Assembly: GCA_020428105.1 (NCBI GenBank)
Contig: JAGQNK010000015.1
Location: 1,209-50,288, forward strand
Direction: 5' to 3'
DNA from: Candidatus Saccharimonadota bacterium
Lineage (GTDB): Bacteria > Patescibacteriota > Saccharimonadia > Saccharimonadales > JAGQNK01
DNA: 49,080 bases
A program made the translations under genes and the position numbers. The notes under the pieces were generated by a model. It was not told the origin of the DNA and searched no databases. It saw nothing but the letters and a program-made list of their open reading frames with translations. Shown here one piece after another: positions 15,480 through 20,554 of the stretch. The stretch's first letter is position 1; every line of letters starts with the position of its first letter.

Positions 15480-16292
15480 ATGATAAGGATTAATAGAAAA
15501 TACATCCCAGCTATGGGACTGTTTGTTGGCTTGGCTATAATAATTTTTCTCTATAACACTTTTTACACCAGTAAACAGCTACAATACTCCCCTAAAAACA
15601 ACAACACGATTGCTGGACCGATAGTGATTAAAGCACGTGAAAAAATAAATCCAAAAAGTGGATCCTATACCATCACACCGTCGGTGAACGGTAATCTCCA
15701 GGTTGTAGACAACTATGTAATTTTTTGGCCCGAGCAGGATGGTGGTTTTGTACTGGACAGAACTTACCAAGCAGTGTTCAAAGACTTCAAAACCGAATCT
15801 AACAAAACCCTAAAACCAGTTAACTTTAATATTACCGTCAACAAAAAGACCGATTATGACAAGCTGCAAAAGGAGGTGTTGGAAAAATATGGACGCTTCG
15901 AGACATCATTTAACCCTTTCTTGGAAAAGTTGCCTTACAAAAAAGACTATAGTTTTAGGATTAGTTATGCGATAAATGAAGATCCTGATCAAGAGGATAG
16001 CCACAGAGAATCCGGCATAGTTGCACTGCTGGGTAACAAGGACAACTGGAAAGAGAAGAAAGATAACTACATTGTCTATATAGAGACTCTTGTCATCCAA
16101 ACCCAGAACCAGAGCTATGCATCCTATGTAGAAGATGTAAAACAAGCCAGACAGGAAGCAAAGGACTGGATCGCGGAACAAGGAGTCAATGTAGAAAAGG
16201 ATATTAACTATGCCTTCATGCCCGATGATAAAACGTTATCTAATCCGAACACCAGCAGAGAAGAAGTACCTTTGCTGCTTGATGATTATTAA
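15480..16292 (+). CDS. Membrane-anchored hypothetical protein, probable Ig-like domain
   Basis: GGAG SD, one N-terminal TM, a beta-rich segment; last gene of the + strand run, overlapping the recF stop region by 4 nt. Confidence 0.65.
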   Translation: MIRINRKYIPAMGLFVGLAIIIFLYNTFYTSKQLQYSPKNNNTIAGPIVIKAREKINPKSGSYTITPSVNGNLQVVDNYVIFWPEQDGGFVLDRTYQAVFKDFKTESNKTLKPVNFNITVNKKTDYDKLQKEVLEKYGRFETSFNPFLEKLPYKKDYSFRISYAINEDPDQEDSHRESGIVALLGNKDNWKEKKDNYIVYIETLVIQTQNQSYASYVEDVKQARQEAKDWIAEQGVNVEKDINYAFMPDDKTLSNPNTSREEVPLLLDDY

Positions 16293-17347
16293 CCCAAAGG
16301 AATGATGTGGCAGTTGTTCATAAAATGCTGCACCACCACATCTGCGTCGGTAGTAGTAATAAAAGTCTGATAGCCACTGATTACTTCTGTAAGTGACTTG
16401 CGTCGTTTGCCGTCTAGTTCACTAAAAACGTCGTCGAGTAGTAGTATAGGCTTACTGCCACGCGTTTCTTCAAGCAGCTGAAGTTCGATAATCTTCAACC
16501 CTAGAAGTACTGTTCTTGTTTCACCACGCGATGCAACTTCTGTGGCATATCGATTATCTAGTGTTATCCTTATGTCTTCTCGATGTGGTCCGACTGTAGT
16601 AAAGCCACGTTCAATGTCTACCGCCTGACGCGCCTCAAGCGTGTGCAGCATGCTCGAGCTGTACTGACCAATATCAAAGTCACTCGTATACATTATTTGC
16701 AAATCTACGGCTTTAAAGGGCGCCAAATTCCTATACAAGTCGCCGATTTTGTTATTGATTTCTGCTACTAGAGTGTGTCGATGCTGGGCAATGACCGCAC
16801 CAGCTTCACATAGACGAATATTCCAAGCAAAAAGCTGACCCTGTGCTGCCTGACCTCGTTTCAGCAGAGCATTGCGCTGCATCAATATTCGTCGATAGTC
16901 ACGTCTTGCTTTACTATATCCCGGAGTGGTTTGCTCCAATAAATTATCGAGATAGTCACGGCGCAAGTCTGGTTTTCCGTGCAAGAGCAGTAGGTGGTTT
17001 GGCTCAAACAGCACTACAGGGATAGTTTTTTGTAGACTAAGTCGACTAAACTTCTGGTCGTTGATAACAAATTCTCTCTTAACCGTACCATTGTCTTGGA
17101 CTAAAAGCTTAACCACTCTAGTGAAATCCGTCCCAACAGCATCAATACGCGACCAGGGCGCGCCAAACGCCACCAATTCCGCGTCCTTAACTCTATACGA
17201 TCCACCCGTGGATGCAACAAAAATAGACTCCAATAGATTTGTTTTACCGCTAGCGTTTGGTCCGACTATTATATTGACCCCTGAATTAAACTCAAATGAC
17301 TCGTCTCTATACGACCTAAACCTCTGAAGCCTTACACTCGATAACAT
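16289..17347 (-). CDS. recF: DNA replication/repair protein RecF
   Basis: QRFRSY, Walker A GPNASGKTN, ASRGE, LLLDDVFSELD; downstream of dnaN. Confidence 0.95.
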   Translation of the reverse strand: MLSSVRLQRFRSYRDESFEFNSGVNIIVGPNASGKTNLLESIFVASTGGSYRVKDAELVAFGAPWSRIDAVGTDFTRVVKLLVQDNGTVKREFVINDQKFSRLSLQKTIPVVLFEPNHLLLLHGKPDLRRDYLDNLLEQTTPGYSKARRDYRRILMQRNALLKRGQAAQGQLFAWNIRLCEAGAVIAQHRHTLVAEINNKIGDLYRNLAPFKAVDLQIMYTSDFDIGQYSSSMLHTLEARQAVDIERGFTTVGPHREDIRITLDNRYATEVASRGETRTVLLGLKIIELQLLEETRGSKPILLLDDVFSELDGKRRKSLTEVISGYQTFITTTDADVVVQHFMNNCHIIPLG

Positions 17348-17356
17348 AGAGTTATT

Positions 17357-18448
17357 TTAACTCTTTAGTGGCATGATGACATGTAGGTAATCGTCTGTTT
17401 TTGGGTCTGACAAAACTGTTGGTTCAAGCTTTCCATTAAAAGCAAAGATTACATCTTCGCCACCTAATGCGTGCAGTGCATCTAAAATATACCGAGAATT
17501 GAGAGTAATTGTTCCTTCATTAGTTATCTTTGCTGTAGCGGCGGATGTATTTTCTCCTAACTGTGAAGCCACTGAACGGATGCTGACTTGTGAGTTTTCG
17601 GCATCTAGGTGAATTGTTACACTTCCAGCACTCTCGCGAGCAAATAAACTAGAAACTTTCGTAATGTTCGTAAGGTCAGACCTTTTTAAATCCGCAGATG
17701 ATGCAAAAGAAGAGGGAATTAACTTACGATAGTCCGGGTAGGCCCCTTCAATCAACCTAGTCACCAACTCTACATCACCAACTTTGAATAAAACTTGTTG
17801 ATCATCGTGAAAAACCCCTACGTCGCCTCCAAAATCGCCTAATATTCTCAGTAAATCATTTAGAGCTGTGGCAGGGACCAAAAGATTTATGTCTTCATTG
17901 GTTTTCATTAGTCTCTTTTCGGCCAACCTATAGCTGTCCGTGGCGACCATAAATAAACTTCCTTCAAAACTATGTATATATACACCGGTTAATACTGGGC
18001 GGGCCTCGTCATTGGATGCTGCAATAACGACTTGCTGAAGACTTGTTTTTAATACCTTGGCAGGAATATTCCAAGATTTCCCATCTGTAATTGCTGGCAT
18101 AACCGGATAATCCTCCGCCGAAACTCCATTGATAACTGATTTGTATTTATCTGTACTTATATTCAGCTTATAATCGTCAAGTTTTAAGTCAATTACACTA
18201 TTGGGTAAACTACCAACAAAGTCTTGCATAAGCTTGGCTGGAACGGTAATAGAACCTTCTTCTGAAACCTTCGACCCAATGTAGTGAGTGATTGCGATAT
18301 CTAAGTTCGTCGCTGCAATGCTCAATCGATTGTCTACGGTTTTGAGTAATACGTTGGCTAAGATTGGCAACGTCCCTCTGGTATTTGCTACTCGGCTAAC
18401 ATTCGTTAATGCTCTGGCTAAGTTTTCTTGAGTTACTTGGAGTTTCAT
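17357..18448 (-). CDS. dnaN: DNA polymerase III beta sliding clamp
   Basis: LPILANVLL, ATDSYRL, RLIEGAYPDY, C-terminal VIMPLK; downstream of dnaA. Confidence 0.97.
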   Translation of the reverse strand: MKLQVTQENLARALTNVSRVANTRGTLPILANVLLKTVDNRLSIAATNLDIAITHYIGSKVSEEGSITVPAKLMQDFVGSLPNSVIDLKLDDYKLNISTDKYKSVINGVSAEDYPVMPAITDGKSWNIPAKVLKTSLQQVVIAASNDEARPVLTGVYIHSFEGSLFMVATDSYRLAEKRLMKTNEDINLLVPATALNDLLRILGDFGGDVGVFHDDQQVLFKVGDVELVTRLIEGAYPDYRKLIPSSFASSADLKRSDLTNITKVSSLFARESAGSVTIHLDAENSQVSIRSVASQLGENTSAATAKITNEGTITLNSRYILDALHALGGEDVIFAFNGKLEPTVLSDPKTDDYLHVIMPLKS

Positions 18449-18733
18449 TCCTTATTCCTTATCTATTAATTTATAGTAGTAGTCATATTAGGCCCTGTGG
18501 AAGCAGTGGAAAAATGTCTCACTAACAGAGACAGGTATAGGTTGAAATTAGTGGGTAAGTGCTGAGTAAATAAGTAGTACAACCTGTGTCCAAATTTGTT
18601 TTTTATAAACAGACCAACAAAAATAAAGCCAATGGTGGGTATAAGTAGCTGGGTTTGTCCATGCTCCAAGCACAGGATTAACACAACTTCTAAACAAGCT
18701 TTCCACATATATACGGTACTTAAAAAAGCTTCT
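18449..18733. other. oriC (dnaA-dnaN intergenic region) with unwinding element at 18461-18513
   Basis: Minus strand reads TTTTCCACT-GCTTCCACA-GGGC-CTA ATA TGA CTA CTA CTA-TAAATTAATAGAT: two DnaA boxes, a GC motif, DnaA-trios and an AT-rich tract. Another box CTTTCCACA at 18699-18707. Confidence 0.85.
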
Positions 18734-20104
18734 TTAGGCATAGAGACGCTCTTTTATTTCTATAATTGCTGCTTTTAGGTTTGGGTCAAAACCAGATTCT
18801 TTTTGGATTTTTTCAACTGAATGGATTGCGGTGGTGTGATCTTTTCTACCAAGCTCTCTGGCAATCTTCGGAAAACTTAGGTGTAGTTCCGACCGGAGCA
18901 TGTACATAGCCACTTGTCTGGGTACCACAATGTCTTTGTCGCGTTTTGGACCAAGGATATCTTCTAAAGGAACCTGAAAGTGCTTGGCTGTTCTTTCGAT
19001 AATCTGCTTTGCGCTTAGGTGTTTTGGGCGGGATTTAGCCGAGCCGAGTAAGCTGGTTGCGATATTGACATCGGGTTCTAAGCCTCGCATTTCGCAAAAG
19101 GCTAAAAGCTGGTTTAGGGCACCTTCTAGCTCACGGATGTTCGTCTGTATTAAATTGGCTAAGAATTCAACTACTGGCGGGGTTAGGGTGGTGGCATGCT
19201 CACTGGCTTTGGTCTGAACAATAGCACAGCGAGTTTCGAAGTCTGGTATTTGCATATCAATACTCATCCCCCAAGCAAAGCGGGATCTGAGTCTTTCCTC
19301 TAAAGTGGGGATGTCTTTTGGCGGCTTATCACTACTGATGATAATCTGTTTATTTGCTTGGTGTAGAGCGTTGAATGTATGAAAGAATTCTTCTTGGGTT
19401 TTGTCGCGACCAGCAATGAACTGCATATCGTCCACGATCAAAACATCAGCATTTCGGTAATAACCTTGGAAATCGGTGTTTTTCTTGAAACGCACAGCAT
19501 CGATGAATTCCTGGACGAACTGCTCGATCGACACATATACTACATGAGAGCCTGGCTTGTTGGTCAAGACCGCATTGCCGACGGCCTGAATGAGGTGAGT
19601 TTTGCCAATGCCAACTCCGCCATACACAAACAACGGATTGTATTTACTGCCTGGATTTTGGGCGATTGCTTGGCAGGCTGCGTAGGCTAGCTCGTTACCC
19701 GATCCAACAATAAAACTGTCGAAGGTATATTTAGCGTTTAATCCTTGGCGATAAGAGTGGGTTAGGGTGCTTGTATTGCTTTTGGGTGTAGTTTGTATCG
19801 ATGGTTTCTTTTCAGGATTTTTTAGTATGACAGGCTCGTCGAGCTTCTTGTGCTGAGAGATGCCGGAGTCTGTTTTGTACTCAATACGTATCGGTGAAAC
19901 ACCGTTTTTAGCCAATATATCTACGATTAACTGGTTGAATCGTTTTTCCATCTGCTGTTTGACAAAGACGTTTTGGACGCCAATTGTAATAACATCATCT
20001 TGGCGGCGCAAAAGACGAGTGTTTTTAAACCATGTAACGTAGTGTGCACGAGAAATGGTAAGCTCTATCTCCCCTAGAACCGCTTGCCACAAGCTATCTT
20101 GCAT
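18734..20104 (-). CDS. dnaA: Chromosomal replication initiator DnaA
   Basis: NPLFVYGGVGIGKTHL, LIVDDMQF, ERLRSRF, KDHTTAIHS. Start moved to ATG 20104 (MQDSLW), which follows a GGAGAGG SD. Confidence 0.98.
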   Translation of the reverse strand: MQDSLWQAVLGEIELTISRAHYVTWFKNTRLLRRQDDVITIGVQNVFVKQQMEKRFNQLIVDILAKNGVSPIRIEYKTDSGISQHKKLDEPVILKNPEKKPSIQTTPKSNTSTLTHSYRQGLNAKYTFDSFIVGSGNELAYAACQAIAQNPGSKYNPLFVYGGVGIGKTHLIQAVGNAVLTNKPGSHVVYVSIEQFVQEFIDAVRFKKNTDFQGYYRNADVLIVDDMQFIAGRDKTQEEFFHTFNALHQANKQIIISSDKPPKDIPTLEERLRSRFAWGMSIDMQIPDFETRCAIVQTKASEHATTLTPPVVEFLANLIQTNIRELEGALNQLLAFCEMRGLEPDVNIATSLLGSAKSRPKHLSAKQIIERTAKHFQVPLEDILGPKRDKDIVVPRQVAMYMLRSELHLSFPKIARELGRKDHTTAIHSVEKIQKESGFDPNLKAAIIEIKERLYA

Positions 20105-20161
20105 ACCTCTCCCAATACTCCCTAATTCATTATTGAAAATGACTATACTAAAATATATCAC

Positions 20162-20307
20162 TTTTCCACAACCTGTGCATGAAGTAATAAAAAACCACAA
20201 TAATTCGACAAACAGATAGGTATTTATACACAGAATGAACCCACCCCTGTAGATTCTGTGGAAAATACTTGAGAAAATGGGTATAACTTGCTAAGATTAG
20301 TGGGTAA
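20162..20307. promoter_or_regulatory. DnaA-box cluster upstream of dnaA
   Basis: Perfect TTWTNCACA matches at 20162-20170 (TTTTCCACA), 20224-20232 (TTATACACA) and 20257-20265 (reverse, TTTTCCACA). Near-matches at 20174-20182 and within 20296-20307. Confidence 0.8.
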
Positions 20308-20416
20308 ATATTGTCAAAATCACTAGGTTTGATGATCCGGAAGATATGTGTTTGTATGTTCAATATTGACATACGACTACTCATCCGCTCATTAGATGTG
20401 GTAAAGTGGAGAGATT

Positions 20417-20554
20417 ATGCCAAAACGAACGCACCAACCAAAGACTCGTAAAAGAGCACGTCAACACGGTTTCATGAAACGCATGGCCAGCAAAGCAGGG
20501 CAGGCTGTTATGAAGCGCCGTCGTTTAAAAGGTCGCAAAAAGATAGCAGCGTAA
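20417..20554 (+). CDS. rpmH: 50S ribosomal protein L34 (missing from the ORF track)
   Basis: Manual translation: [45 protein letters not shown] (45 aa); divergent from dnaA. Confidence 0.97.

Follow-up and report, generated by a model that had tools for sequence, protein, structure and literature searches.

A probable DnaA-trio unwinding element, lying within a long open frame, between dnaA and dnaN of a Saccharibacterium

Where does a Saccharibacterium open its chromosome for replication, and why is the stretch of DNA in which it may do so also an open reading frame? These questions are raised by the 285-bp spacer between dnaA and dnaN (18449-18733, minus strand) of the window, by which we mean the whole stretch of 49,080 nucleotides analysed here. 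The original prediction held that a DnaA-trio unwinding element directly upstream of dnaN pinpoints oriC. From the evidence given below we consider it likely, with a probability of about 0.8, that a 53-base element in this spacer is the unwinding element (BUS) of the chromosome origin of this organism.

Anatomy of the box-trio module and its published counterparts

The spacer separates dnaA (18734-20104), which encodes a protein of 456 residues with all four domains, from dnaN, the gene for the beta sliding clamp (17357-18448, with its ATG at 18446-18448), and beyond dnaN lies recF (16289-17347); all three genes were assigned by Pfam and are found on the minus strand. The start of dnaA was placed at the ATG at 20104, which stands after GGGAGAGG; the alignment with relatives begins at residue 1, and a product of 456 residues is likewise given by public gene calls. 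Upstream of dnaA lies rpmH (20417-20551), with rnpA and yidC (Pfam) next to it, and this group is divergent from dnaA-dnaN-recF. The search for known RNA families gave two sub-threshold matches and none above threshold. A weak Rfam match to AsdA, an antisense RNA of dnaA mRNA, at 19546-19624 on the plus strand (23.3 bits against a gathering score of 52, E = 0.073) is probably due to chance.

The string on which the original prediction was built is present verbatim on the minus strand from 18513 to 18461 (53 bases), and it ends 12 nt before the start of dnaN. Read on that strand, the order of the parts is TTTTCCACT GCTTCCACA GGGC CTA ATA TGA CTA CTA CTA TAAATTAATAGAT, followed by AAGGAATAAGGA and the dnaN ATG. 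The first DnaA box (TTTTCCACT, 18505-18513) has two mismatches to TTATCCACA, the E. coli motif, and one to the clade motif TTWTNCACA. The second (GCTTCCACA, 18496-18504) has three mismatches and abuts the first without a gap, giving a 9-bp register. As judged by the E. coli motif, box 1 is the only one with two mismatches or fewer, and box 2 reaches that level only against the clade motif. A GC-rich spacer of 4 bp (GGGC, 18492-18495; clade consensus GGCC) leads to the DnaA-trio array, six triplets reading CTA ATA TGA CTA CTA CTA (18474-18491) and, on the lower strand, 3'-GAT TAT ACT GAT GAT GAT-5'. The first CTA trio lies 13 bp from box 1. It should be underlined that the third trio, TGA (3'-ACT-5' on the lower strand), departs from the NAN trio rule, and for this reason the array is best described as two good trios, one bad one and three perfect ones; the uninterrupted run of three begins at a distance of 13 bp from box 2 and 22 bp from box 1. 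The AT-rich tract TAAATTAATAGAT (18461-18473) then runs into the Shine-Dalgarno sequence of dnaN, AAGGAATAAGGA, and this whole segment (18449-18473) presumably continues the unwound region. Among the 30-mers between 18300 and 20500, the one with the lowest duplex stability is made up of the trios and the AT tract (18461-18490), where 25 of 30 bases are A or T.

A BUS has been defined as a DnaA box with at most two mismatches, an optional tandem second box with at most four mismatches 0-3 bp away, a spacer of up to 16 bp (mode 13) between box and first trio, and at least three NAN trios, and such elements were predicted in 85% of 2070 origins (PMC8287927). The module of the window has a box with no more than two mismatches, a tandem second box, a 13-bp spacer, an AT-rich tract and a location at the origin. 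A layout like that of B. subtilis had been predicted, and the layout does match the published element of B. subtilis, although the match to that of D. radiodurans proved to be closer. In B. subtilis, the BUS in incC comprises DnaA boxes 6 and 7, a GC cluster, six DnaA-trios and an AT-rich 27-mer (PMC6669920, PMC8287927, PMC10721633, PDB 8BTG), and its top strand reads TTATCCACA AATCCACA GGCC CTACTATTACTTCTACTA TTTTTTATA (PMC8287927 supplement). Common to both are the order and orientation of the parts, six trios spanning 18 bp, a position directly before dnaN and an origin that extends on either side of dnaA; in both, too, CTA is the trio favoured on the strand that is sense for dnaN, and the trios in the middle of the array are degenerate. 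In contrast, the boxes of B. subtilis follow an 8-bp register instead of the 9 bp of the window, and the window differs further in its one off-rule trio, its shorter AT tract, the glutamines that replace both N187 and R202 of DnaA, the DnaD/DnaB and DnaI partners that were not found, and a spacer that is an open frame in its entirety.

The closest geometry is that of D. radiodurans, whose top strand reads TTTTCCACA GTATCCACA GGCC CTACTACTGCTACTACTG (PMC8287927 supplement); it has tandem boxes in a 9-bp register, a box 1 of the TTTTCCACA type, a 4-bp GC spacer and the same 13-bp distance, and unwinding at this element was shown in vitro (PMC8287927). A precedent for an imperfect array is provided by oriC of Thermotoga maritima, where the trios are interrupted, although that origin, unlike the window, has a 12-bp box motif and a different layout (PMC10316083, PMC8287927 supplement). 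The mechanism had also been predicted to be Firmicute-like. The reading as a BUS stands, but the Firmicute label has to be dropped: the element is pan-bacterial, DnaD/DnaB and DnaI are absent here, and the BUS is common to Firmicutes because it is widespread, not because a Firmicute pathway has been retained. Saccharibacteria and Patescibacteria are not named in the available part of the supplement of the BUS survey (PMC8287927), and a literature search returned no description of oriC or a BUS for either group.

By analogy with these systems, we infer that DnaA-dependent melting takes place at the module. Domain IV of DnaA would bind the two abutting boxes, as in B. subtilis and D. radiodurans, and the bound boxes would position an oligomer of ATP-DnaA that advances three nucleotides at a time onto the lower strand of the six trios, 13 bp from box 1. 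The oligomer would stretch and open the adjoining AT-rich duplex, the least stable of the region, just before dnaN.

Two further features were seen upstream of box 1. A CTGTT(A) motif (18524-18528, minus strand) lies 15 nt from the box; in 35 of 77 loci it recurs at 14-15 nt, often after TTT(T/C)AYNY, compared with about 5% of shuffled sequences that contain it anywhere in 45 nt. The motif may be a third, weaker box, in the same orientation and some 22 bp upstream, or it may be bound by another factor. In the window it forms the loop of a terminator-like hairpin, TGTCTC-TGTTAGT-GAGACA (18515-18533, minus strand), and after the hairpin comes the run of T with which box 1 opens. Conservation of the hairpin stem in relatives was not apparent on inspection, and translation across the hairpin would block its folding.

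Conservation of the module and placement of the origin

To compare the module among relatives we used 80 related loci, all from MAGs of Saccharibacteria/Saccharimonadales whose DnaA is 71-92% identical to that of the window; 79 of them reach dnaN, and their dnaA-dnaN spacers measure 234-437 bp. That the trio tract would be conserved in relatives, as the original prediction implied, was borne out by the aligned spacers, in which both box and trio tract are kept. The module was found in about 75 of the 79 close loci, at 37-71 nt before dnaN. Five loci with long spacers of 400-437 bp (L004, L063, L066, L073 and L079; see also G209 and G212) have it 116-180 nt upstream of dnaN instead of about 50, and in these genomes an additional segment is inserted between module and dnaN.

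The clade consensus reads TT[AT]T[AC]C[AC]CA, YT[AT]TCCACA, GGCC, YTA YTA NWA NWA CTA CTA, and then A/T-rich sequence. Columns 1, 2, 4, 6 and 8 of box 1 are 96-100% conserved, with position 5 free (A 50%, C 41%), while the core TCCACA of box 2 is 80-100% conserved, and the tandem pair is kept in the clade. The trio profile displays a 3-nt periodicity, with conserved trios towards either end (1, 2, 5 and 6) and degenerate ones in the middle (3-4) throughout the clade. The relaxed box formula proposed earlier, (T/C/G)(T/C)TTCCAC(A/T), did not survive this comparison; the clade consensus is instead TT[A/T]T[A/C/G]CACA, in which position 5 is free, as is usual.

A 40-column weight matrix was then derived from 76 relatives, not including the window, and both strands of the 910-kb genome were scanned. 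The module scored 41.1 bits, compared with 11.3 bits for the runner-up among 1,815,972 genome positions. Of 40 additional Saccharimonadales genomes, 37 reached at least 15 bits on the sense strand and none did so on the antisense strand; these 40 genomes represent about 30 other families, with DnaA identity down to 46%, and took no part in the training. Outside Saccharimonadales, dnaA is followed by dnaN in 52 of 60 sampled Patescibacteria genomes. A box with at most two mismatches together with at least four of six NTA triplets within 16 bp occurs in 31 of these 52 loci but in only 8% of shuffled spacers, and when at least five NTA triplets are demanded the figures are 17 of 52 and 0.4%, respectively. 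Many of the Patescibacteria modules look like textbook examples, such as TAATCCACA GTTTCCACA ACCC CTA TTA CTA CTA CTG.

These results also bear on the possibility that the module is a chance resemblance in AT-rich intergenic DNA. The published trio rule (NAN at least three times) is indeed permissive, and shuffled spacers fairly often present three of six NTA trios beside a loose box. Against this, the module stands 30 bits above the next best site in the genome, and it is kept across about 120 genomes with DnaA identity down to 46%, and beyond the order. A chance match was rejected on the strength of the 30-bit gap and the 37 of 40 independent Saccharimonadales genomes, and we regard it as extremely improbable.

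With regard to the origin as a whole, DnaA boxes (TTWTNCACA with at most one mismatch, counted over the clade) reach a density of 17 per kb over the 300 bp that precede dnaA and of 23 per kb between dnaA and dnaN, while within the dnaA and dnaN coding sequences the density is 2.1 and 1.6 per kb, respectively; this amounts to an enrichment of about 10-fold on both sides of dnaA. Two of the 14 exact TTWTCCACA boxes of the genome lie upstream of dnaA. Besides the tandem pair, the dnaA-dnaN spacer of the window carries CTTTCCACA (18699-18707, plus strand) and TTATACCCA (18636-18644). The rpmH-dnaA spacer (20105-20416) carries TTTTCCACA (20162-20170, plus strand), TCATGCACA (20174-20182, minus strand), TTATACACA (20224-20232, plus strand), TTTTCCACA (20257-20265, minus strand), TTATACCCA (20278-20286, minus strand) and TTTACCACA (20397-20405, minus strand). 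The origin is bipartite: box clusters flank dnaA, and the BUS is located solely on the dnaN side. The left half, which also holds the dnaA promoter region, is the rpmH-dnaA spacer, and the right half is the dnaA-dnaN spacer. Elsewhere in the genome, two contigs (C56 near 13.4 kb and C9 near 11 kb) have 4-5 DnaA-box-like 9-mers within 600 bp, equal to the region upstream of dnaA; the matrix scan gave no BUS-like site at either cluster.

The GC skew of the window and of its 50-kb contig is noise at that scale, and since the genome is a draft of 63 contigs, we read the skew in two long relatives. In an 840-kb relative, the cumulative skew is V-shaped with an amplitude of about 11,000, and dnaA, at 670.7 kb, falls in a flat minimum between 630 and 702 kb. 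The other relative, read on a contig of 774 kb, has a weak skew; on a circular reading its minimum lies at about 65-75 kb and dnaA at 93 kb. In both relatives dnaA is thus in or near the minimum, in agreement with the predicted placement of oriC, although the skew supports this placement to about ±30 kb only and the position at the level of bases rests on the motif model.

A different view of the tandem boxes is that they form an operator through which DnaA controls transcription of dnaN or of the dnaA operon, and that unwinding occurs elsewhere, for example in an AT-rich stretch upstream of dnaA. DnaA is known as a transcription factor, and the second least stable 30-mer (20129-20158) adjoins the perfect box upstream of dnaA. 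This box (20162-20170) is overlapped by a promoter-like site, TGCACA-16 nt-TATATT with an upstream TG (20152-20179, minus strand), about 50 nt before the dnaA ATG; a promoter that overlaps a DnaA box before dnaA is the usual layout for autoregulation of dnaA. An operator, however, has no need of a GC spacer with a constant length of 4 bp, of an array that repeats every 3 nt over 18 bp or of a set distance of 13 bp. Moreover, the upstream box has no trio-like sequence next to it, and the genome contains no second BUS-like site. No sigma-70-like promoter was found over the module, and a dnaN promoter was rejected on this ground as the cause of the conservation. We therefore consider the operator view improbable, and unwinding at the module itself remains the preferred reading.

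The initiator and the search for helicase-loading partners

The best match to the DnaA of the window in the PDB is the B. subtilis BUS complex 8BTG (E = 5.7e-117). The residues by which B. subtilis DnaA captures trio bases or splits the duplex have been named (PMC10721633). At these positions the protein is identical at I190 (aligned with I201), E228 (with E239) and the arginine finger R264 (with R275), shows the conservative changes I193V, K222R and E223D, and has glutamine in place of N187 and R202, both of which contact trio bases in B. subtilis. Domain IV keeps the DHTT..H motif. The protein has the initiator-specific motif and most of the residues that contact the single strand. A second, divergent DnaA-like gene, 33% identical, was seen on another contig of one of the Saccharimonadales genomes (G013, C3:1260-2633).

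As for the partners that load the helicase, the 99.6%-complete genome gave no match to DnaD/DnaB (DnaB_2, PF07261), with B. subtilis and L. lactis positive as controls. For a loader of the DnaI/DnaC/IstB type (PF01695), only DnaA itself came above the cut-off in this genome. DciA was not found in it either, the D. radiodurans control being positive, and in this respect the window's genome differs from D. radiodurans, which has DciA. A genome that is 99.6% complete and shows none of the known helicase loaders poses a question of its own.

The open frame across the spacer

The whole spacer, boxes and trios included, is spanned by an open frame of 91 codons (18466-18741, minus strand) that ends with a TAA in the AT tract. 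Its ATG overlaps the stop codon of dnaA (ATGCCTAA), and the frame is reported by gene callers. The same holds among the relatives: a single sense-strand frame takes up nearly the whole spacer in each of the 80 loci. When these loci (L001-L080) are taken together with 45 further genomes, the spacer is at least 85% open in 117 of 125 Saccharimonadales (about 94%) compared with 2 of 43 other Patescibacteria (Fisher p = 1.4e-28), and spacers of 549 and 622 bp are among the open ones.

If the frame encoded a real small protein between dnaA and dnaN, the motif could be no more than its C-terminal peptide (…S-T-x-S-T-G-P-x-x-T-T-T…). The 91-residue frame that spans the site would fit such a protein, as would the relatives found by tblastn at 2.5e-11 to 5e-5. 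The pattern of substitutions does not: in 28 close pairs, the spacer frame showed 0.445, 0.405 and 0.489 differences per site at codon positions 1, 2 and 3, respectively, compared with 0.079, 0.026 and 0.47 for dnaA and 0.17, 0.071 and 0.552 for dnaN in the same pairs. The peptide contains only 3.1% Asp and Glu, has no conserved hydrophobic segment and gave no Pfam match, and those motifs that seem conserved in the protein alignment are DnaA boxes read as codons. A small membrane protein was likewise rejected, as hydrophobic windows occur in 16 of 80 loci compared with 26% of shuffled peptides.

It is also evident that the module is indifferent to the frame in which it is read, as the open frame crosses it in frames 0, 2 and 1 in 47, 19 and 11 loci, respectively. 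In the commonest of these frames, third codon positions that would be fourfold-degenerate are near-invariant (the C of TCC, b2.6, at 98% and the A of ACA, b2.9, at 100%), whereas box position 5, where the change would be a radical one between Ser and Tyr, flips freely between A and C. Other Patescibacteria keep the module without any ORF. The peptide motif was rejected because of the three-frame reading and the invariant third positions, and we consider a small protein of this kind very improbable. A module that is read in all three frames argues for a constraint on the DNA and not on the peptide; as judged by these alignments, the conservation of the module acts at the DNA level.

The frame itself calls for a separate explanation. 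It may be an untranslated by-product of base composition, of sense-oriented boxes or of trio-like periodicity, and some observations agree with this: sense-oriented boxes and CTA repeats are free of stops in every frame, the amino-acid sequence is unconstrained, and in the segment that leads from the sixth trio up to dnaN, 25 of 72 ORF frames are open, compared with 48 of 144 for the other two frames. Over the spacer as a whole, however, the other two sense frames contain 5.3 and 5.7 stops per locus. An openness of 85% was reached in only 5-6% of shuffled spacers (mononucleotide or first-order Markov) and on the antisense strand in 9 of 80 loci. Periodicity of the trio type throughout the spacer was rejected as the cause of the open frame, since T occupies codon position 3 in only 36% of cases. 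In all of 77 loci, the ATG of the frame precedes the end of the dnaA stop by 8 nt (TATGCNTAA), and the Lys and Glu codons of dnaA in front of it are AAG in 69 and GAG in 63 of 80 loci, against the preference of dnaA overall for AAA (61%) and GAA (57%). It is this biased choice of the synonymous codons AAG GAG that places an AAGGAG 7 nt before the frame ATG. Finally, the frame survives frame-changing indels and spacers of up to 622 bp. A by-product therefore appears unlikely to us as an account of the open frame, though clearly less so than the alternatives considered above for the module.

At its other end, the frame always extends past the sixth trio, with the stop 5-53 nt later in most loci, and it overlaps the dnaN ATG in 24 of 80 loci. 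A selected stop/start overlap with dnaN (ATGA) was considered and rejected, and we claim no selection for such an overlap, because over the short stretch downstream of the sixth trio and before the start codon of dnaN, openness is no higher in the ORF frame than in its two alternatives. Other candidate reasons for the frame were considered as well. Protection against Rho-dependent polarity is unlikely since Rho is absent, no RNA-binding domain of Rho being detectable in the 99.6%-complete genome. A special vulnerability to R-loops was also rejected, the genome having both an RNase HI-like gene and a gene for RNase HII. The Southlakia Tn-seq paper does not mention dnaA, dnaN or the origin.

The frame is thus kept open with no constraint on its amino acids, and this combination suggests that the dnaA-dnaN transcript is probably translated without interruption across the origin. 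The broader proposal is that in Saccharibacteria ribosomes read through the origin along a frame of 75 to about 200 codons that is kept open with translating itself as the selected trait. We put this forward tentatively, at slightly less than even odds, on the basis of the comparisons of frames and codons given above. Translation of the origin might escort RNA polymerase and ribosomes through DnaA-bound DNA to dnaN, or it might tie origin firing to the translational state of the cell; another idea is that translation of the spacer protects the mRNA or delivers ribosomes close to dnaN. Phage lambda has its ori within gene O, so that initiator sites and the unwound region lie inside a translated frame. 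The frame of a lambda-type ori, however, encodes a functional and conserved protein, whereas the peptide of the window seems unconstrained and the origin is that of a cellular chromosome.

The module adds a new member to the BUS elements, arguably a whole phylum, and the BUS has been proposed as the ancestral bacterial way of opening origins. For genomes in which the skew is often weak, the module also provides a marker of the origin at the level of bases. The open frame is the more surprising part: if the reading given here is true, Saccharibacteria would have a cellular origin in which the initiator sites and the melting site lie inside a translated frame that is free in its sequence, a pattern that is nearly absent from their sister lineages.
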